A stretch of 64,000 nt of DNA from contig CBDEUK010000002.1 in the NCBI GenBank assembly GCA_965243205.1, forward strand, positions 2,112,001 through 2,176,000. Reading direction: 5' to 3'. The notes beneath the pieces are model-generated. The model had not been told where the DNA came from. It was given only the letters and a program-made list of their open reading frames with translations, and searched no databases. Positions 37,484-47,794 of this stretch are shown here, in pieces. The DNA comes from Gammaproteobacteria bacterium (GTDB taxonomy: Bacteria > Pseudomonadota > Gammaproteobacteria > Eutrophobiales > Eutrophobiaceae). The position numbers and the translations under genes are program-made. Position 1 is the first letter of the stretch. The number at the start of each line of letters is the position of its first letter.

Positions 37484-37677
37484 TAACAAAGCTCCAATGA
37501 TTAATTTTTATTGAACCATAACAAGAAAAAATACTTATTTATAGGTAAGCGGGAACAAATCACTTTCAGATAATATTATGAGGGTTTAGCATCATTCTCT
37601 TGCATTGTAATAAAGATGATATAAATCTTAATTACTCTTTAATTAATATATTTTTAGTGCCAACTCTAGTGAGGACA

Positions 37678-38337
37678 ATGTTTGTGATGAGCATTTTTAA
37701 ACCGTTCTTTTTTGCATATTGTTGCTTATTCATAAATTCTGCTTTTTCCACCACGGTTCTACAAATTCACCTCGACGATATGCTGCTCCAATCAGAATTA
37801 GTTTTTGAGGGAGAGGTACTGTCTTCTGAATCTAAATGGAATAGAAAAAAAACATTCATACATACATATGTTAATTTCAGAGTAGATGACGTTATCAAAG
37901 GAAATTACTCTGGAAATACTCTAACTCTAAGTTTTGCGGGTGGAGAAATAGATGGCGCAGTGTTACAAGTTTCTGGAATGAAATATCCTGATATTGGTGA
38001 AAAAGGTGTTTTTTTTATTGAGCAGTTAAACAAGCCACAAGTGAACCCATTTATTGGTTGGGGCCAAGGTCATTTTATAATTGCTAAAGACCAATCTGGA
38101 ACAGATCGAGTTTTAACTGAAAACAAGAAGATGGTACTAGGTTTGGAGCAAATGGAATCAACAGTTTCACGGGCTTTGAGATCTAATAGGATGCAACCAT
38201 TCGCTCATGGGGTTGCTGAAGGACTCAGGCTTGGGCAGGATAATGAGCCTTTAAGAAACGCAATGGAAAAACGAGTTTTTATATCCTCTATAAAACAAAG
38301 GTTAGTAAGATTAATGGATCAAGGATATGTTGAATAG
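37678..38337 (+). CDS. Exported hypothetical protein, partner of downstream matrixin
   Basis: Signal peptide ending SAFS|TT; SELVFEGEV...IKG...GG beta-rich pattern; GAGGA near 37671 (start 37678-37687); stop overlaps next start. Confidence 0.72.
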   Translation: MFVMSIFKPFFFAYCCLFINSAFSTTVLQIHLDDMLLQSELVFEGEVLSSESKWNRKKTFIHTYVNFRVDDVIKGNYSGNTLTLSFAGGEIDGAVLQVSGMKYPDIGEKGVFFIEQLNKPQVNPFIGWGQGHFIIAKDQSGTDRVLTENKKMVLGLEQMESTVSRALRSNRMQPFAHGVAEGLRLGQDNEPLRNAMEKRVFISSIKQRLVRLMDQGYVE

Positions 38338-39467
38338 TGTTTATTAAAGTAATTACTTGTGTGTTTTGTTTCTTTATGAGTTTTTCTGTCAATGCATTTG
38401 TTTTAACAGGAAGTTCTTGGCCAGCAGGTGAGACTGAAGTTTATGTCAATTTTTCTGCATCTAATACATTTTCAGATACCCCAAATGTTGTGGTTCCAGG
38501 GGGGCCTTCAATAAGCGAATTACAAACTGCTTATATCGAAGCGATGGATATTTGGACTAATAACTCTACTTTTCAATATATTCCAAATACTGGAGTAGGT
38601 TTTGGAGCTCCCTGTACTTCATCATTTAATACTGCGATATTTTCAACAACTCCTGAATGCGATAGTAGTGTTTTTGGTGAAAATACTCTCGCAGTACAAT
38701 GGACGTTTAGACCTTTTGAAGGCAGTACAACTACTATTAAAACACTAACCGTTTTCAATAATGCTTTTGAATGGGATATCTATACTGGACCATGGACAGG
38801 TGTGGCTGAATTTAAACGAGTGGCCGTACATGAGCTTGGACATGGATTGGGACTTGGGCATTCCGCAGATTCTTCTGCAATCATGTGGTTTCAAGCTGGG
38901 AACACTGAAACTCCACAGATGGATGATCTAAATGGAGTTGCAGCCCTGTATGATTTAGATTCGGATGGAGTTGGTATTGCTTCAGATAACTGTCCTGATG
39001 TTGCAAATAATACTCAAACTGACACTGATTCTGACGGGCAAGGAGATGCTTGTGATAGTGACGATGATAATGATGGAATAAACGATACAGTCGACAATTG
39101 CCCAATCAATGCTAACGCTGGGCAAGCAAATTTTGATAATGATTCTGAAGGTGATGTTTGTGATTTGGATGATGACAATGATGGGCTGACTGATTTAGAA
39201 GAAATTAATACATATAATACCAACCCTTTTAATTCAGATTCAGATAACGATGGATTAAGTGATGGAGATGAAATCAATATTTATTCTACTGATCCAAATT
39301 TATCCGATACTGATAATGATGGTATTAACGATGGAGATGAAGTAACGAACGGAACCGATCCTCTTGTTAATGAGTCTGTGATAATCCCTGCTATGCCAAT
39401 GTTAGCCTTACTGATATTAGGTTTGTTCTTAATACAAGCGAATAAGTTAACTCATCGTAAAATTTGA
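38337..39467 (+). CDS. Matrixin-family (metzincin) metalloprotease with TSP3/Ca-binding repeats and C-terminal sorting/anchor segment
   Basis: Signal peptide VNA|F, HELGHGLGLGHS zinc motif plus Met-turn AIMW, Asp-rich repeats, IPAMP-hydrophobic-basic tail. Confidence 0.85.
   Translation: MFIKVITCVFCFFMSFSVNAFVLTGSSWPAGETEVYVNFSASNTFSDTPNVVVPGGPSISELQTAYIEAMDIWTNNSTFQYIPNTGVGFGAPCTSSFNTAIFSTTPECDSSVFGENTLAVQWTFRPFEGSTTTIKTLTVFNNAFEWDIYTGPWTGVAEFKRVAVHELGHGLGLGHSADSSAIMWFQAGNTETPQMDDLNGVAALYDLDSDGVGIASDNCPDVANNTQTDTDSDGQGDACDSDDDNDGINDTVDNCPINANAGQANFDNDSEGDVCDLDDDNDGLTDLEEINTYNTNPFNSDSDNDGLSDGDEINIYSTDPNLSDTDNDGINDGDEVTNGTDPLVNESVIIPAMPMLALLILGLFLIQANKLTHRKI
38955..39366 (+). repeat. Thrombospondin type 3 / DxDxDG calcium-binding repeats (protein level)
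   Basis: DNCPDVAN..DTDSDGQGDACD, DNCPINAN..DNDSEGDVCD, and three D.DNDG..D..E units; boundaries approximate. Confidence 0.8.
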
Positions 39468-40865: not shown

Positions 40866-40971
40866 AGTTTTTTGTATTGAACAAGAAAATTAGTTGCTAT
40901 TGTGGCACAATTATAATGCTTAAATCATAAACCAATAACCGATTCGTTGAAGGGGAGTCGAGGAGATAACA

Positions 40972-41139
40972 ATGAGCATCAAACTAGTTTTCAAACTATT
41001 AGTGGTATCTGTTTTATCTTTCGTATTATTTGGTTGTAATAAAGATGGAGCCGAAACATCTGGTTCTACAAGTTTAGATGATAGTTCTCATATCGTTGTT
41101 TACCAAGATGAGATCTATAAAAACTGGCCATATCAGTAA
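40972..41139 (+). CDS. Small lipoprotein (55 aa, not in ORF track)
   Basis: GAGGAG SD 6 nt upstream; MSIKLVFKLLVVSVLSFVLFGCNKDGAETSGSTSLDDSSHIVVYQDEIYKNWPYQ*; lipobox LFGC; C-terminal motif repeated in next gene. Confidence 0.85.
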   Translation: MSIKLVFKLLVVSVLSFVLFGCNKDGAETSGSTSLDDSSHIVVYQDEIYKNWPYQ

Positions 41140-41169
41140 TTTTAAAATTTGTTTTATAGGAGTTTTTTC

Positions 41170-42042
41170 ATGTCAGAAGTATTCAATCTAAAAGTACTAT
41201 CTATAAGTATTTTGATATTTGCACTACAAGCATGTAGTAAAGACGAACAAGAAAAGGTGAGTGATAAGTCTAATGAACCTTCTAATGTTGTTAATGTTGA
41301 ATTGAAACCTGAAAAAACTCCTGAGTCTGAAAAAGTTGAAACACCTCAAGAGGAAGCTCAATCAACAGTTGATGAGTTAATTCCTGAACCTAAACCTGAA
41401 TTATTTCATGAAGTGGTAACGCAAGAACAGATTTATAAAAACTGGCCTTACCAAGAAGAGATGCGTAATTTACCCACGCAAACATCGGTTGAACCAGAGC
41501 CTGAGACCATTATTGAAAAAGCAACCGAGGCCGTAGAAGAAAAGGCAACGGAAGTAAAAGAAGCTGTCGTTGAAAAAGTATCTGTAGCAACTGGTGCTAG
41601 TAAAGATATGGTTAGTAATGTTGTCGATAAAGTGGTTCCCGCACCTACTCCAGCTGCAACTGGAGGAGCAGAGCATGTTATTAACGCAAAAGGTTTGACC
41701 GCTTTTGATAAACCGATTCTTTATGTTGCACCTGGGGACACGATTCATTTTAAGAAATTAAATGGTGGCCATAACAGTGAGTCAGTTTTCACACCTGAAG
41801 GTGCGGAAGGTTGGAAAGGCGCTATGAATAAAAATATTTCAGTAACACTGACAGTGTCTGGTATGTATGGTTACATTTGCTTACCTCATGCGGGTTTGGG
41901 TATGAACGGCGTTATCGTTGTTGGTGATGCAGGTGATAAAGAAGCGGTTATGGAAAAACTTCGAGGATTGGAACAAACCGATCCTGCACGTAAATTATTA
42001 GGCAAAGTGAATAAAGTAAAACCTGAGAATTACGTAAAATAA
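41170..42042 (+). CDS. Lipoprotein with long acidic tether and C-terminal pseudoazurin/plastocyanin-like type-1 copper domain
   Basis: AGGAG then ATG 41170; lipobox LQAC; PGDTI, GHNSES, YICLPHAGLGMNG give His-Cys-His-Met ligands. Confidence 0.87.
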   Translation: MSEVFNLKVLSISILIFALQACSKDEQEKVSDKSNEPSNVVNVELKPEKTPESEKVETPQEEAQSTVDELIPEPKPELFHEVVTQEQIYKNWPYQEEMRNLPTQTSVEPEPETIIEKATEAVEEKATEVKEAVVEKVSVATGASKDMVSNVVDKVVPAPTPAATGGAEHVINAKGLTAFDKPILYVAPGDTIHFKKLNGGHNSESVFTPEGAEGWKGAMNKNISVTLTVSGMYGYICLPHAGLGMNGVIVVGDAGDKEAVMEKLRGLEQTDPARKLLGKVNKVKPENYVK

Positions 42043-42061: not shown

Positions 42062-42090
42062 AAAAAAGCCCGCTATATGTGGGTTTTTTT
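42062..42090. terminator. Bidirectional terminator between cupredoxin gene and ppk2
   Basis: AAAAAAGCCCGC-TATAT-GTGGGTTTTTTT. Confidence 0.8.
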
Positions 42091-42961
42091 ATTTTGACAT
42101 TAAACGTTTTTTATAGCCTTCAAATTTTTCTTTTTCGTCCTTTGAAACTTTTGGATAATGCATATCCATATTTTTCATAGTGTTTAAAATAATCTCAGCC
42201 ACTCGCATACGCATAAAAGGTTTATCGTCTGCAGGTATGGCGTACCAAGGTGCCCAAGGTTTAGAAGTCGTACGTAATGTCTCTTCATAAGCATGCATAT
42301 AATCATCCCATAATTTACGTTCATCCAAATCACCTTCATTAAATTTCCAATGTTTTTCAGGTTCTTCTAAACGACTTAAGAAGCGTTGTTTTTGTTCTTC
42401 TTTAGAAACGTTGAGCCAGAACTTGATAATCACAGTTCCGTTTTGTGCAAGATGTTTTTCAAACTGATTTATAGACTCAAATCGATCTTGCCAAATAGTC
42501 TCACGATTTATTTCTGCTGGAAGTCGTTGGTAATTTAAGTACTCTGGATGAACACGAACGACTAAGACTTCCTCGTAATAACTACGGTTAAATACGCCAA
42601 TGCGACCTCGTTCAGGTAATGCTTTGGTGGTACGCCATAAAAAGTCGTGATCTAATTCCTCAGCACTGGGTTTTTTGAAACTATGAACCTGACAGCCGGC
42701 TGGGTTTAAACCACGGGTGACGGCACGAATAGTACTGTCTTTACCAGCTGCATCCATCGCTTGAAAGACCAATAAAATAGCGTGATGGTCATGCGCATAC
42801 ATAATTCGTTGATAATCATCCATTTCATCGATGTATTTATTCAAACGTTTTTTACACTCTTTACGATCAGGGGCTGCATCAGGCGGAGCTGTAGGGGAAG
42901 ATTCGAGGCTGAAATTGCCTTTGAAAGAAACCAAGTAAGGGCTTTCAACAGAGTACTTCAT
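42089..42961 (-). CDS. ppk2: Polyphosphate kinase 2 family protein (class III-like)
   Basis: FQAMDAAGKD, FKKPSAEELDHDFLWR, FNRSYYEEVLVVRVH, APWYAIPADDK. Confidence 0.9.
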   Translation of the reverse strand: MKYSVESPYLVSFKGNFSLESSPTAPPDAAPDRKECKKRLNKYIDEMDDYQRIMYAHDHHAILLVFQAMDAAGKDSTIRAVTRGLNPAGCQVHSFKKPSAEELDHDFLWRTTKALPERGRIGVFNRSYYEEVLVVRVHPEYLNYQRLPAEINRETIWQDRFESINQFEKHLAQNGTVIIKFWLNVSKEEQKQRFLSRLEEPEKHWKFNEGDLDERKLWDDYMHAYEETLRTTSKPWAPWYAIPADDKPFMRMRVAEIILNTMKNMDMHYPKVSKDEKEKFEGYKKRLMSK

Positions 42962-43655: not shown

Positions 43656-44159
43656 ATGAAGTTAACACGAAGAATGTTATTAATCGCGACCTCAGTCAGT
43701 GCTATTTCGGTCGCGACCTACCGTTTGTTTAGCGCAAGTAAACCTGAAAGTTTATTAACGACTGTCTTACCCGAGTTTTTAGATACTTTAATTCCTAGTG
43801 ATCAAACCCCATCGGCTTCACAGCTGAACGTAGATGAAGATATGATTGACTATCTTCAAGAAAAGTTACGATATAAAAATATTGTGATGTTTGGATGTGC
43901 ATGGCTTAACAAACAAGCCAATGAAATTTTTTCTGAGGACTTTTTGAATTTAGATACACAACAAAAAATACAAATTGTTGAGAAATTAGAATCCACGAAA
44001 CAAAACCAAACAGCACAGTTTTTCTTTCATCATATAAAAGACAAAGCATTTGAGTTTTACTATTCCAAACCACAAAGTTGGATCGGTCTTGAGTTTCATC
44101 AACCACCACAGCCTCTTGGATACAATGATTACAATCAAAGGACCATTCACACTTCATGA
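43656..44159 (+). CDS. Gluconate 2-dehydrogenase subunit 3-like (Tat hitch-hiker) small subunit
   Basis: Tat-like LTRRMLL, DTLIP..TPSA, FYYS...PQPLGY; overlaps the GMC gene. Confidence 0.8.
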   Translation: MKLTRRMLLIATSVSAISVATYRLFSASKPESLLTTVLPEFLDTLIPSDQTPSASQLNVDEDMIDYLQEKLRYKNIVMFGCAWLNKQANEIFSEDFLNLDTQQKIQIVEKLESTKQNQTAQFFFHHIKDKAFEFYYSKPQSWIGLEFHQPPQPLGYNDYNQRTIHTS

Positions 44160-45826
44160 GTGATGAATACGATGTTGTTATTATAGGTTCTGGTGCGGGT
44201 GGCGGTGCTTGTGCCTGGACATTGAGCAAACAGGGTGTGAATGTTTGTTTATTAGAAGCAGGTCCCGCATATGACTATCAAAAAGATTATCGTCTAGAAC
44301 ATAATGACTGGGAAGTATATGGTTTTCCAGAAAAACAAAGCTCATCTAATCGACAAACATTTGGTGAATTTCAGTCATTAGATCGTAAATGGTCTGATTT
44401 ATTTTCATGGAATCATGAAACAGGCCGGTTGAATAAAACCGATAAACGAATAGTTTTCGCATATCATCATGTTCGAGGTGTTGGAGGTTCAACCTTGCAT
44501 TTTAGTGGAGAGGCTCATCGCATGAATCCTGAGTCGATGAATCTCAAAACCAAATTTGATGTTGCGGCTGATTGGCCCGTGAGTTATGCGGAACTCGAAC
44601 CTTATTATCAACTGGCTGAAAAAATCATTGGCGTTGCTGGCGGTGTAGATAATCGTTGTTGGCGTTCTGAGCCATATCCTTTGCCAGAGCATGAGTGGAA
44701 TTATCACAGTCATTTATTGAAATCAGGTTTTGCAGAAAATGGTATGAATTTACAGAGTAATTCATTAGCTATTTTATCTAAGCCATACAACGATAGACCA
44801 GCATGTAATCACTGTAATAATTGTACTAAAGGTTGTCCTCGAGCGGATAAAGGCAGTGTTGATGTCACTTTTATTCGACAAGCCAGGGCCTTTGATAACT
44901 TTACTCTAAAGGTAGAAGCCACAGTAACTCAAATTAAAAGTACTGAGAATGACAAGGTAACGGCAGTTACTTATTTTGATAGCAATGGCAACGAACAATC
45001 ATTGACGGCACGAGTGATAGTAGCTGCATGTGGAGCAGTTGAAACTCCTAGGTTATTACTCAACTCTGAAAGTAATCATGCCAAGCAGGGTTTGTCCAAT
45101 GACTCAGGGCAACTAGGAAAGAATTTTATGGAAACAGTCTTTTGGCATACCAATGCGTTACATGAAGAACCATTGGGTAGTCATCGTGGTATTCCATCCG
45201 ATGTGGTGTGTTGGGACTTTAATAACCCAGATTCTATTGAAGGTGTTATAGGCGGTTGTCGATTCAGTTCTGGTGTGGGGGAAACCGATTTAGTTGGTCC
45301 TGTGAATTATGCTAAGCGTGTTGTAAATGGTTGGGGGCTAAAACATAAACAAACTATGCGTGAACAATTTGGCAAAGTTATTTCCATAGGTGCTGTTGGA
45401 GAAAGTTTGCCGCATGCGAAAAGTTTTATTGATCTAGATCCCAATGAAAAAGATCAATTTGGTTTAGCAAAAGCAAGAATTCACAGTTTTGTTGATGAAA
45501 TGCAATTAAATCGTCTATCTTTTATGAAGCAGCGTTGCCGTGATGTTGTAAAAGCCAGTGGCGCTGAGACTATTTTTGAAGAGTATGGTAACTATGATTA
45601 CTTCAGCGCAACTCATGTTTTTGGGACTTGTCGTATGGGTAATGATGCTGAAGATTCAGTAGTTGATCGATTTGGCCAAAGTCATCGATTCAAAAATTTG
45701 TTTATTGCCGATGCCAGTGTGTTCCCTAGTTCAGGCGGTGGGGAAGCACCTTCCCTTACGATTGAAGCTCTGGCTCTTAGGACAGGCGATAGAATTGTGG
45801 ATTTATTGCAGAAAAAACAGCTATAG
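44156..45826 (+). CDS. GMC family flavoprotein oxidoreductase large subunit
   Basis: GSGAGG FAD motif, GVGGSTLHF, CNHCNNCTKGCP, HVFGTCRMG, DASVFP. Confidence 0.92.
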   Translation: MSDEYDVVIIGSGAGGGACAWTLSKQGVNVCLLEAGPAYDYQKDYRLEHNDWEVYGFPEKQSSSNRQTFGEFQSLDRKWSDLFSWNHETGRLNKTDKRIVFAYHHVRGVGGSTLHFSGEAHRMNPESMNLKTKFDVAADWPVSYAELEPYYQLAEKIIGVAGGVDNRCWRSEPYPLPEHEWNYHSHLLKSGFAENGMNLQSNSLAILSKPYNDRPACNHCNNCTKGCPRADKGSVDVTFIRQARAFDNFTLKVEATVTQIKSTENDKVTAVTYFDSNGNEQSLTARVIVAACGAVETPRLLLNSESNHAKQGLSNDSGQLGKNFMETVFWHTNALHEEPLGSHRGIPSDVVCWDFNNPDSIEGVIGGCRFSSGVGETDLVGPVNYAKRVVNGWGLKHKQTMREQFGKVISIGAVGESLPHAKSFIDLDPNEKDQFGLAKARIHSFVDEMQLNRLSFMKQRCRDVVKASGAETIFEEYGNYDYFSATHVFGTCRMGNDAEDSVVDRFGQSHRFKNLFIADASVFPSSGGGEAPSLTIEALALRTGDRIVDLLQKKQL

Positions 45827-45901: not shown

Positions 45902-47794
45902 ATGAACCAGTACCCTGAACAGTTTGATGTGATTGTTATCGGCGGTGGCCATGCCGGAACCGAGGCTGCGCTGGCGTCTGCTCGTATGGGTTCAAAAACC
46001 TTACTATTGACGCAAAATATCGATACATTAGGACAAATGTCCTGTAATCCGGCGATTGGTGGTATTGGCAAAGGTCACTTAGTTAAAGAAATCGATGCAA
46101 TGGGCGGCATCATGGCGTTAGCAGCGGATTATTGCGGTATTCAATTTCGCCGGCTCAATGCGAGCAAAGGCCCAGCGGTTCGAGCGACGCGTGCTCAGAT
46201 CGATCGCAGTTTATATCGTCAATTTATTCGTAATTATCTCGAAGCCCAAGGTAATCTCAGTATCTTCCAGCAATCGGTAGAAGACTTAATCGTTGAGGGT
46301 GAACAAGTCGTTGGCGCGACTACTCAAATGGGTTTGCAGTTTTATGCTAAAAGTATCGTGCTAACAGTAGGTACGTTTTTAGGCGGTAAAATTCATATTG
46401 GTGAATCTAATTACCAAGGTGGGCGCGCAGGAGATGCACCATCAAATGCTTTGGCTCAACGTTTACGCGAATTGCCATTCAGAGTAGAGCGCTTAAAAAC
46501 AGGTACTCCTCCGCGTATCGATAGCAAAACAATTAATTTTGATGACTTACAAGCTCAGCCTGGAGATGAGCCTGTGCCGGTTTTTTCTTTTATGGGAAAG
46601 ACCGAATATCATCCGCAACAAGTACCTTGTTACATAACACACACGAATCAGAAAACGCACGATATTATTCAAGCCGCTTTAGATCGATCACCAATGTTTA
46701 ATGGCAGCATTGAAAGTGTAGGGCCACGTTATTGTCCTTCAGTCGAAGATAAAGTAGTGCGTTTTGCGGAAAAAACCTCACATCAAATCTTTATTGAGCC
46801 TGAAGGCTTAACGACTAAGGAGATATATCCGAATGGTATCTCAACCAGTTTACCGTTCGATGTACAGTTTGACCTAGTTCGCTCCATTGAAGGTTTTGAA
46901 AATGCCCATATCACTCGTCCTGGCTATGCTATCGAATACGATTTTTTTGACCCCAGAGATTTACATCCTTGGTTAGAGACGAAGCATTTAAAGGGCTTAT
47001 TCTTCGCTGGGCAAATTAATGGTACAACAGGTTATGAAGAGGCTGGTGCACAAGGTTTATTAGCTGGAATCAACGCCGCTCGATTAGCGAATGATGAATC
47101 TACTTGGTATCCACGTCGTGATGAGGCCTATTTAGGAGTGATGGTGGATGATCTCATTACAAAAGGTACGATGGAACCGTATCGTATGTTTACAAGTCGT
47201 GCCGAGTACCGTCTCATTTTACGTGAAGATAATGCTGACTTACGATTAACTGAAGTTGCACATGAGTTCGGTTTGGTTTCGGATGAACAATGGCGACGCT
47301 TTAGTGAAAAGCAAGATGCTATTCAGGCTGAACAAAAACGCTTGGAAACGACTTGGATTTCGCCAGAAAAAACTGATGATGAATTATGTCAGGCTGTATT
47401 AGGCCAATCCTTGAAACACGAAGCGAATTTGATGCAGCTATTGAAACGCCCTGAAATCAATTATTCAGATGTCATAAAATTTATCGAACAAAATAGCGAA
47501 ATTGATCCATTGGTTGCGGAACAGGTTGAGATTCAAGCCAAATACAGTGGATATATTGATCGCCAACATGAAGAAATTGCTCGTAATCGGTCGCAAGAAG
47601 AAACGCCTATGCCTGCAGATTTTGATTATTTAAAAGTCAAAGGTTTATCCGCTGAAGCTGTGCAAAAACTGAATCAGCATCAGCCTGAGAATCTTGGAAT
47701 GGCTTCAAGAATTCCAGGTATTACGCCGGCAGCAATTTCAATTTTACGAATTTATTTAAAAAAATATTATTCCAGTTTGAAACAAAGTGCTTGA
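45902..47794 (+). CDS. mnmG: tRNA uridine-5-carboxymethylaminomethyl(34) synthesis enzyme MnmG (GidA)
   Basis: [51 protein letters not shown]. Confidence 0.97.

Follow-up and report, generated by a model that had tools for sequence, protein, structure and literature searches.

Within a 64,000-nucleotide stretch of a Gammaproteobacteria bacterium genome (contig CBDEUK010000002.1; the whole stretch is referred to as the window), two adjacent genes encode a 55-residue lipoprotein and a 290-residue lipid-tethered pseudoazurin, and we found that the two products have one 16-residue motif in common, HxVVxQxxIYKNWPYQ (hereafter the tag). In relatives, the same peptide forms the nearly invariant C-terminus of a large family of small lipoproteins and recurs inside the linkers of electron carriers of different folds. 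We suggest that the tag acts as a short linear motif by which these proteins dock to one and the same third party in the cell envelope; the binding itself is what we infer, and we give this reading an even chance. The analysis followed up an original prediction, made by a model from the DNA letters and their open reading frames (ORFs), which had singled out the pair.

Both window proteins have the N-terminal features of a bacterial lipoprotein, namely, a signal peptide and a lipobox (LFGC in the small protein, LQAC in the long one) whose Cys is residue 22 in each. After processing, the small protein would keep 34 residues, a disordered Ser/Asp-rich tether and the C-terminal tag, and its exact 55-residue product is already recorded as a called gene in a protein collection. 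The two ORFs are separated by a gap of 30 nucleotides, and their arrangement suggests one transcription unit yielding two lipid-anchored periplasmic proteins. In these respects the original prediction was borne out: the strong Shine-Dalgarno site, lipobox and C-terminal motif of the small ORF, the lipobox and the second motif copy in the acidic linker of the long gene, and the single operon closed by a terminator, for which the short gap, two AGGAG sites and a stable hairpin speak (Table 1).

The tag is neither a chance repeat nor a recent DNA copy, as judged from the sequences of its two occurrences. A pattern back-translated from YKNWPY was found twice in the window against 0.04 expected occurrences, none of 100 shuffles reached two, and those two sites are the only ones in the whole genome of 2,793,537 bases (G000). 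At the DNA level, 34 of 48 nucleotides are identical between the copies; among the 16 codons, 6 are identical, 6 differ synonymously and 4 differ nonsynonymously. The 60 nucleotides upstream of each copy are unrelated (20 of 60 identical).

An alignment of nine small proteins, used as a query with a search cut-off of E ≤ 0.01, retrieved 154 protein clusters of 65-111 residues that lack Pfam domains and almost all carry the name "hypothetical". Conservation was assessed in 121 proteins, namely, the 120 listed cluster representatives and the window's own protein. The tag was present in 120 of them (119 representatives and the window's own), and the remaining one carries a K-for-N variant. The retention of the small ORF and its motif among homologues, which the original prediction had proposed as a check, was thus confirmed. 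Within the tag, V, Y, D, Y, W and P were invariant in all 120 tag-bearing proteins, and the tether preceding it showed no conservation in the same set. The consensus at the C-terminus is KAEGV[VI]YQDEIYANWPYN, and that of the tag can also be written GV[VI]YQ[DE]EIY[AK]NWPY. The chain ends exactly two residues past WP in 111 of the 120, a lipobox of the pattern [LVI][ASTVI][GAS]C is found in 118, and the residues that follow its Cys are mostly G-D/G-D/S. Mature chains in this set have 34-67 residues (median 56), the window's small protein being the shortest member and among the most divergent. Synonymous codons at the invariant residues vary freely across the DNA versions compared (29 small-type, 17 linker-type); therefore, selection acts on the peptide, a point first argued from codon differences between the two window copies and upheld by their six synonymous differences.

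This family had no match in the resources searched. Against the curated families of Pfam and NCBIfam, the window's small protein, five typical members and a two-tag protein (P0123) yielded only sub-threshold noise. The tag profile had no match in the PDB (best E 0.77), the ESM Atlas gave no usable match for the small lipoprotein or its tag, a single-sequence homologue search returned no protein beyond the window's own, and a literature search that left supplements outside its scope found nothing on the tag strings. The system had originally been said not to be recognizable as a described one, and the four kinds of resource (Pfam, NCBIfam, PDB and literature) agree. In G001, a genome of the same genus as the window (loci L004 / L052), two small tag-bearing lipoprotein genes stand in tandem upstream of the tethered pseudoazurin gene. 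Of these two genes, the second is very similar to the 5′ part of the carrier gene, which suggests that partial duplication may give rise to small genes; both small proteins end in NWPE rather than NWPY.

To describe the genes associated with the tag, 29 loci were fetched from public genome contigs, all of them metagenome-assembled genomes of uncultured Gammaproteobacteria. The small gene lies directly upstream of a lipid-tethered electron carrier in 22 of them, the carrier being a pseudoazurin in 6 and a monoheme XoxG-like cytochrome c in 16; the other 7 loci have no adjacent carrier, and 2 of these 7 stop at a contig edge. The tag is repeated in the carrier linker, as YLPSQVVYQEEIYKNWPYTEAP, in all 6 pseudoazurins and in 8 of the 16 cytochromes c (14 of 22 carriers). 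In the remaining 8 carriers, all cytochromes, the tag is missing while the accompanying small protein keeps it. Carriers thus occur without a tag, and some genomes have only the small protein; the constant element of the system is therefore the small lipoprotein and not the tethered carrier.

A 30-column profile of the tag, searched in 1.84 billion representatives, gave 40 matches at E ≤ 0.001. The sequences of 17 of these were examined, together with the 1 match that a weak search with an alignment of the longer type had returned. Among the examined profile matches, both small lipoproteins and pseudoazurins occurred with either one tag or two, and there were an XoxG-like cytochrome and cargo of a third type, which resembles cytochrome c5 (P0138 and P0122); P0123, P0124 and P0146 are natural two-tag proteins. 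Two of the matches, P0139 and P0144, did not belong to the tag family. Among the proteins examined, the only domains fused to the tag were electron carriers, and the rest were tag-only lipoproteins and fragments. The profile and the survey of fused domains that the original prediction had called for therefore led to pseudoazurin, XoxG-like cytochrome c and cytochrome c5-like cargo and otherwise to tag-only proteins.

The cytochrome cargo has a single solved relative, XoxG (6onq, 2.4e-5). The best NCBIfam model for one example, P0131, was TIGR03874 ("c-type cytochrome, methanol metabolism-related"), at 46.5 bits and below its cut-off of 161.75, and the soluble cytochrome paralogue scored 16.1 bits against TIGR03872 (MoxG), below the cut-off of 147.8. 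Judged by these scores, the cytochrome cargo is only a distant relative of XoxG, and it is absent from the window's pair. In some tethered cytochromes (L054:5773-6696 and L059:3966-4832), linker 2 is a 95-111-residue Ala/Glu/Lys repeat (AEAKAAAEVKA...) with 41-48% Ala, which has the appearance of a rigid helical spacer. Another short conserved stretch, similar to EKA[VI]QLPAE.P, is found upstream of the tag position in 11 of the 22 carriers (L044, L048, L049, L051, L054, L055, L059, L060, L062, L063 and L068), including carriers that have no NWPY tag.

The cargo of the window's own carrier is better defined. It matched Pfam Copper-bind (PF00127) at 39.9 bits, above the cut-off of 21.2 (E 5.8e-10), and the NCBIfam pseudoazurin equivalog TIGR02375 at 80.9 bits, below the cut-off of 109.85 but still the best family (E 5.6e-23). 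These scores make the long protein a divergent pseudoazurin that falls outside the equivalog by the NCBI rule. The best solved relatives of the cupredoxin domain are pseudoazurins (3tu6 at 5.5e-20), and the type-1 copper ligands His201, Cys237, His240 and Met245 are invariant in all seven aligned tethered pseudoazurins. In an AlphaFold2 (AF2) model of moderate confidence (domain predicted local distance difference test score, pLDDT, of about 70-85), beta strands at residues 168-251 are followed by helices at 257-266 and 271-282, which corresponds to a cupredoxin fold followed by the pair of C-terminal helices that characterizes pseudoazurins. Foldseek placed pseudoazurins at ranks 1-26 against the PDB (TM to target 0.62-0.68). 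The ligands, Pfam, the PDB and Foldseek thus concur with the pseudoazurin-like domain and the His-Cys-His-Met ligands that had been assigned from the sequence alone. The tag was modeled, in the window's long protein and in P0123, as a short helical turn (pLDDT 58-76) between linkers at 32-50. In these models it does not appear to be folded with its own protein, which would fit a peptide that folds only on a partner.

The same arrangement was found in other genera of the window's family by six-frame searches of 61 related genomes. Matches to the tag profile occur in 38 of 126 family genomes, corresponding to 25 of 81 good-quality genomes and 8 of 34 genera, a count that includes seven weak, partial matches in genus g21. 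In 24 genomes from other families of the class, the tag search found only signal-peptide or low-complexity matches. The composition of the pair varies: in genus g14 the small lipoprotein stands beside a carrier that has no tag, and in genus g20 (G020 and G075) a single search of each genome found one tag-bearing protein and no XoxG-like cytochrome. The one pseudoazurin match of G020 is the soluble copy that adjoins xoxF.

After weighing these data, we propose the following putative arrangement. The small lipoprotein would consist of a lipid, a disordered tether of about 17 residues and a tag of 16-17 residues, that is, a peptide on a string, and the long protein would be laid out as lipid, linker, tag, linker and pseudoazurin. 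The small lipoprotein would keep the partner at the membrane or fill one of its sites, and the tag-bearing carriers would be stationed beside that partner, as far as their linkers reach, so that electrons would pass on the tether without free diffusion. A constant tag combined with three unrelated cargo types is in keeping with such a docking or positioning module. Since there are genomes with a single tag-bearing protein, and since the small protein keeps its tag beside tagless carriers, the target is unlikely to be another copy of the tag; since the cargo folds differ, it is unlikely to be the cargo. Of the docking peptide that was originally proposed, the part that held is its presence on interchangeable carriers, as a docking or positioning module predicts.

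Within the docking reading, we tentatively favor the system of XoxF, a lanthanide-type alcohol/methanol dehydrogenase, as the partner (XoxF or XoxJ), a choice that we nevertheless regard as doubtful. Three reasons lead us there: XoxF is conserved, soluble and periplasmic, and these carriers appear to accept its electrons; a lipoprotein with nothing but a tag is most easily understood as anchoring a soluble protein to the membrane; and the extreme conservation of XoxF matches that of the tag. Soluble XoxF would then be recruited to the membrane, and a membrane-bound methanol-oxidation assembly would be held by a 16-residue peptide. With similar reserve, we put forward the idea that this could be the first periplasmic docking system of the short-linear-motif kind in respiration, in which the tag recruits XoxF, directly or via XoxJ, and tagged carriers are parked on it.

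The genomic context of XoxF lent this choice its background. Pyrroloquinoline quinone (PQQ) alcohol dehydrogenases scored above the curated cut-off in 32 of 37 family genomes, G000 included, and the three PQQ alcohol dehydrogenases of the window's genome all have WDYDG, which we take to be the signature of lanthanide enzymes. The main XoxF (contig C2:209642-211606) is 75-92% identical to its orthologues across genera. A soluble pseudoazurin gene adjoins the main xoxF in 23 of 36 family relatives, and of the 18 loci that were retrieved around pseudoazurin genes (L025-L042), 14 have xoxJ next after the soluble pseudoazurin. The position beside xoxF and before xoxJ is usually held by xoxG. Because pseudoazurin takes that position, the soluble protein may accept the electrons of lanthanide-dependent XoxF in vivo in this clade; the literature search, again with supplements outside its scope, found nothing on pseudoazurin as a partner of XoxF. 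G000 encodes soluble paralogues of both carriers, a pseudoazurin 84% identical to the tethered domain and a 135-residue cytochrome.

Several observations weigh against docking in general or against XoxF in particular. The anatomy, the conservation, the selection on the peptide and the interchangeable cargo were observed, whereas binding by the tag, and the nature of its target, go beyond what was observed. The tag is relaxed in the genus of the window itself, with NWPE endings and T for Y, and there the soluble pseudoazurin gene is not beside xoxF. The conserved neighborhood of the pair consists of housekeeping genes, and no redox partner gene adjoins the pair in it. XoxF and the caa3 subunit CoxB are near-universal in the family, whereas the tag is patchy, so presence and absence single out neither of them. 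XoxF is equally conserved in tagless genomes, and no alignment column separated eight XoxF sequences of tag-bearing genomes from six of tagless ones. Moreover, in three tagless genomes (G022, G024 and G028) the same locus still encodes a lipid-tethered pseudoazurin, with neither tag nor small gene; therefore, tethering works without the tag.

The alternative partner within the docking view is an electron-accepting membrane complex, that is, a caa3 or cbb3 oxidase or bc1, and not a dehydrogenase. The carriers would then be parked at the oxidase, with the small lipoprotein as an accessory subunit or as the filler of a second site. The window's genome does encode caa3 (CoxB with a fused heme c domain), cbb3 (CcoO and CcoP) and cytochrome c1, and by established knowledge all three cargo types, the c5-like domain included, are plausible oxidase donors. 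Membrane-tethered oxidase donors are known, cytochrome cy being an example. However, an integral membrane complex needs no tag-only lipid anchor, and CoxB was found in 21 of the 23 family genomes searched, regardless of the tag. We consider an oxidase or bc1 target unlikely.

We also considered the carrier domains themselves as the target of the tag. In that case, the small lipoprotein would be a noncovalent membrane anchor or cap for soluble pseudoazurin or cytochrome c, and the linker copy would fold back or recruit a second carrier. Such a role would suit the soluble paralogues of both carrier types in G000 and genus g20, which has the small protein and a soluble pseudoazurin only. Nevertheless, one nearly invariant peptide would need to bind three unrelated folds, and in the AF2 model of the full tethered pseudoazurin, admittedly a weak test, the tag reached a pLDDT of only 58-67. 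Binding to the carriers is quite unlikely in our view.

A third possibility requires no redox-specific partner: the tag might be a general envelope-positioning element that contacts peptidoglycan, an outer-membrane protein or the membrane interface and sets the height of the lipoprotein. The aromatic residues of the tag (Y, Y, W, Y) would be compatible with this, as would the fact that it invariably sits some way from the lipid, by 19-75 residues in the 16 tag-bearing carriers measured and at the end of mature chains of 34-67 residues in the small proteins; the Ala/Glu/Lys spacers of 95-111 residues past the tag in some carriers point the same way. Yet a general positioning element would be expected on other lipoproteins too, and the tag-bearing proteins examined, apart from tag-only lipoproteins and truncated fragments, were all electron carriers, which makes this explanation improbable.

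That the two copies bind each other, so that the small lipoprotein pairs with the carrier, had been part of the original prediction as oligomerization. The copies are encoded side by side in 14 of the 22 carrier loci, and two-tag proteins such as P0123, P0124 and P0146 exist. However, the 8 tagless carriers beside tag-bearing small proteins, the single tag-bearing protein of G020 and of G075, and the AF2 model of P0123, in which the tags form two separate short helices with no strand pairing (again a weak test), have left this idea highly improbable. Finally, a functionless remnant of partial gene duplication, which the second small gene of G001 with its likeness to the 5′ part of the carrier gene might suggest, can be dismissed almost entirely, given residues invariant in 120 proteins, saturated synonymous sites, unconserved flanks and a spread over 8 genera.

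Other redox enzymes of the family were also surveyed. Cytochrome c peroxidase, which G000 encodes, was rejected as an obligate partner, as PF03150 was found in 10 of 23 family genomes and is missing from the tag-bearing genomes G015 (100% complete) and G020 (98% complete). In the window's genome no NirK scored above the cut-off, the Cytochrom_D1 matches are propeller ORFs of 323-354 residues and not full cd1 enzymes, and the NosZ propeller had no match, its control likewise having no match anywhere. At G000:C2:1668780-1671290, a 503-residue cytochrome with ten CxxCH sites lies beside two monoheme cytochromes.

The coordinates of the pair and of the related loci are collected in Table 1. A gap of 106 nucleotides, with the possible -10 box inside, separates the small ORF from the divergent M20 peptidase gene upstream, and the convergent gene downstream encodes PPK2 (42089-42961, minus strand). 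The hairpin behind the pair, which a simple pattern scan had overlooked and which none of 200 shuffles equaled in folding, is likely a two-way terminator common to both convergent units.

Table 1. Features of the gene pair and its surroundings (window positions unless a genome or contig is named)
Feature	Position	Strand	Basis or remark
Possible -10 box TATAAT	40912..40917	+	Read by eye; weak: the consensus scan lists no + strand promoter there
Shine-Dalgarno AGGAG, small ORF	40961..40965	+	ATG 6 nucleotides downstream
Small lipoprotein gene, 55 residues	40972..41139	+	ORF call; member of the family with 154 protein clusters
Lipobox LFGC (Cys22), small protein	41026..41037	+	Sequence
Tag copy 1, HIVVYQDEIYKNWPYQ, extreme C-terminus of small protein	41089..41136	+	Sequence
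Shine-Dalgarno AGGAG, long ORF	41158..41162	+	ATG 7 nucleotides downstream
Lipid-tethered pseudoazurin gene, 290 residues, start ATG 41170	41170..42042	+	ORF call, family and structure matches
Lipobox LQAC (Cys22), long protein	41224..41235	+	Sequence
Linker 1, acidic, Pro/Glu-rich, without predicted structure	41236..41406	+	AF2 pLDDT 32-47 (residues 23-80)
Tag copy 2, HEVVTQEQIYKNWPYQ, within acidic Pro/Glu/Val-rich linker	41407..41454	+	Sequence; AF2 pLDDT 58-67, exceeding both flanks
Linker 2, Glu/Val/Ala/Lys-rich, partly predicted helical (residues 111-155)	41455..41664	+	AF2
Pseudoazurin domain (residues about 166-290)	41665..42039	+	Pfam match residues 175-251; PDB pseudoazurins residues 174-273
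Cu ligand codons	His 41770-41772, Cys 41878-41880, His 41887-41889, Met 41902-41904	+	Sequence
Hairpin with A-run 5′ and T-run 3′, likely two-way terminator	42058..42094		Fold -19.2 kcal/mol, z -5.05
Example xoxF-pseudoazurin loci	L031 (G020:C1:730750-734151), L025 (G007:C1), L042 (G008:C84)		
xoxF / pseudoazurin observation, window's own genome	G000:C2:209642-212714, C2:2279314-2279772		

The conserved gene order around the pair is ABC (ATP-binding cassette) transporter genes, a dehydrogenase, the M20 peptidase, the pair, a hexapeptide protein, mnmG, parA and parB. These conserved neighbors are housekeeping genes, and the neighborhood was therefore rejected as a pointer to the partner; three atypical contexts (L047, L056 and L058) have nothing in common. 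One of them, from a single divergent genome, has the small lipoprotein gene beside rpsL and ExbB/ExbD/TonB-like genes (L047:1911-6228), the latter recognized by eye with no family search. In the window, a Gluconate_2-dh3 small subunit and a GMC (glucose-methanol-choline) flavoprotein dehydrogenase are encoded next to each other at 43656-45823, without the usual cytochrome c subunit and with mnmG following at 45902-47791; among the loci compared, this GMC gene cluster recurs only in that of the same-genus genome. Farther upstream, a 245-residue ORF with no Pfam match (37600-38337) precedes the gene of a secreted matrixin-like metalloprotease with thrombospondin type 3 repeats (38337-39464).

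The encounter between a carrier and its partner is usually explained by diffusion and transient electrostatic contacts, and in the few tethered carriers that are known the linkers have no distinctive features. In the present system, a nearly invariant peptide sits in the linker; it is also made alone as a lipoprotein and is joined to three unrelated carrier folds. If the tag is a docking motif, it would represent a portable and genetically simple device that wires a carrier to a dehydrogenase or an oxidase, it would account for more than 150 "hypothetical" mini-lipoproteins in marine metagenomes, and it would help to trace how electrons leave the lanthanide-dependent alcohol dehydrogenases of uncultured, methylotroph-like marine bacteria. 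The replacement of xoxG by pseudoazurin beside xoxF in most of the family bears, in addition, on the identity of the XoxF electron acceptor.

Among known systems, the nearest parallel is the pair Lip (H.8 antigen) and Laz of Neisseria, and it is a parallel by analogy only. Lip and Laz share the AAEAP/H.8 epitope, their genes are not adjacent in Neisseria, and we know of no function for the H.8 element. As in our pair, a peptide-like lipoprotein is matched by a lipid-anchored cupredoxin that has the same element in its unstructured N-terminal part. Laz, a lipid-modified azurin, has been described as a lipoprotein electron carrier (PMC6277709). In contrast, the cargo here is a pseudoazurin and the element is a unique aromatic tag and not a low-complexity AAEAP repeat; there is no sequence similarity, and AAEAP repeats occur in neither window protein. 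The Ala/Glu/Lys repeat linkers of some relatives do look similar to AAEAP repeats.

Likenesses of other kinds are found in three further systems. LpoA and LpoB also use a lipid anchor and a long disordered stalk to bring a small binding element to an envelope partner; however, they end in folded domains and regulate peptidoglycan synthases, with no relation to redox carriers and no sequence similarity to our proteins. The coupling of XoxG/cytochrome cL and of cytochrome cGJ resembles the XoxF version of our proposal, as a carrier is physically linked to a component of the XoxF system. Cytochrome cGJ is reportedly a XoxG-XoxJ fusion of verrucomicrobial methanotrophs, named together with XoxF; there the coupling is achieved by fusion to XoxJ, whereas here it would depend on a lipid anchor and a peptide tag, and the window's cargo is a pseudoazurin. 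Membrane-tethered carriers include cytochrome cy of Rhodobacter, c552 of Paracoccus and the lipoprotein cytochromes c of Gram-positive bacteria. Similar to our long protein, these carriers place a redox domain on a long flexible linker fixed to the membrane, so that it shuttles between complexes without free diffusion, but they do so with a transmembrane helix or lipid and a featureless linker. To our knowledge, none of these tethered carriers has a conserved motif inside its linker or a tag-only companion lipoprotein. Lipid-tethered periplasmic carriers are thus known, and what appears to be new in the present system, on the sequences compared here, is a conserved tag of the docking type together with a companion lipoprotein that consists of little else.

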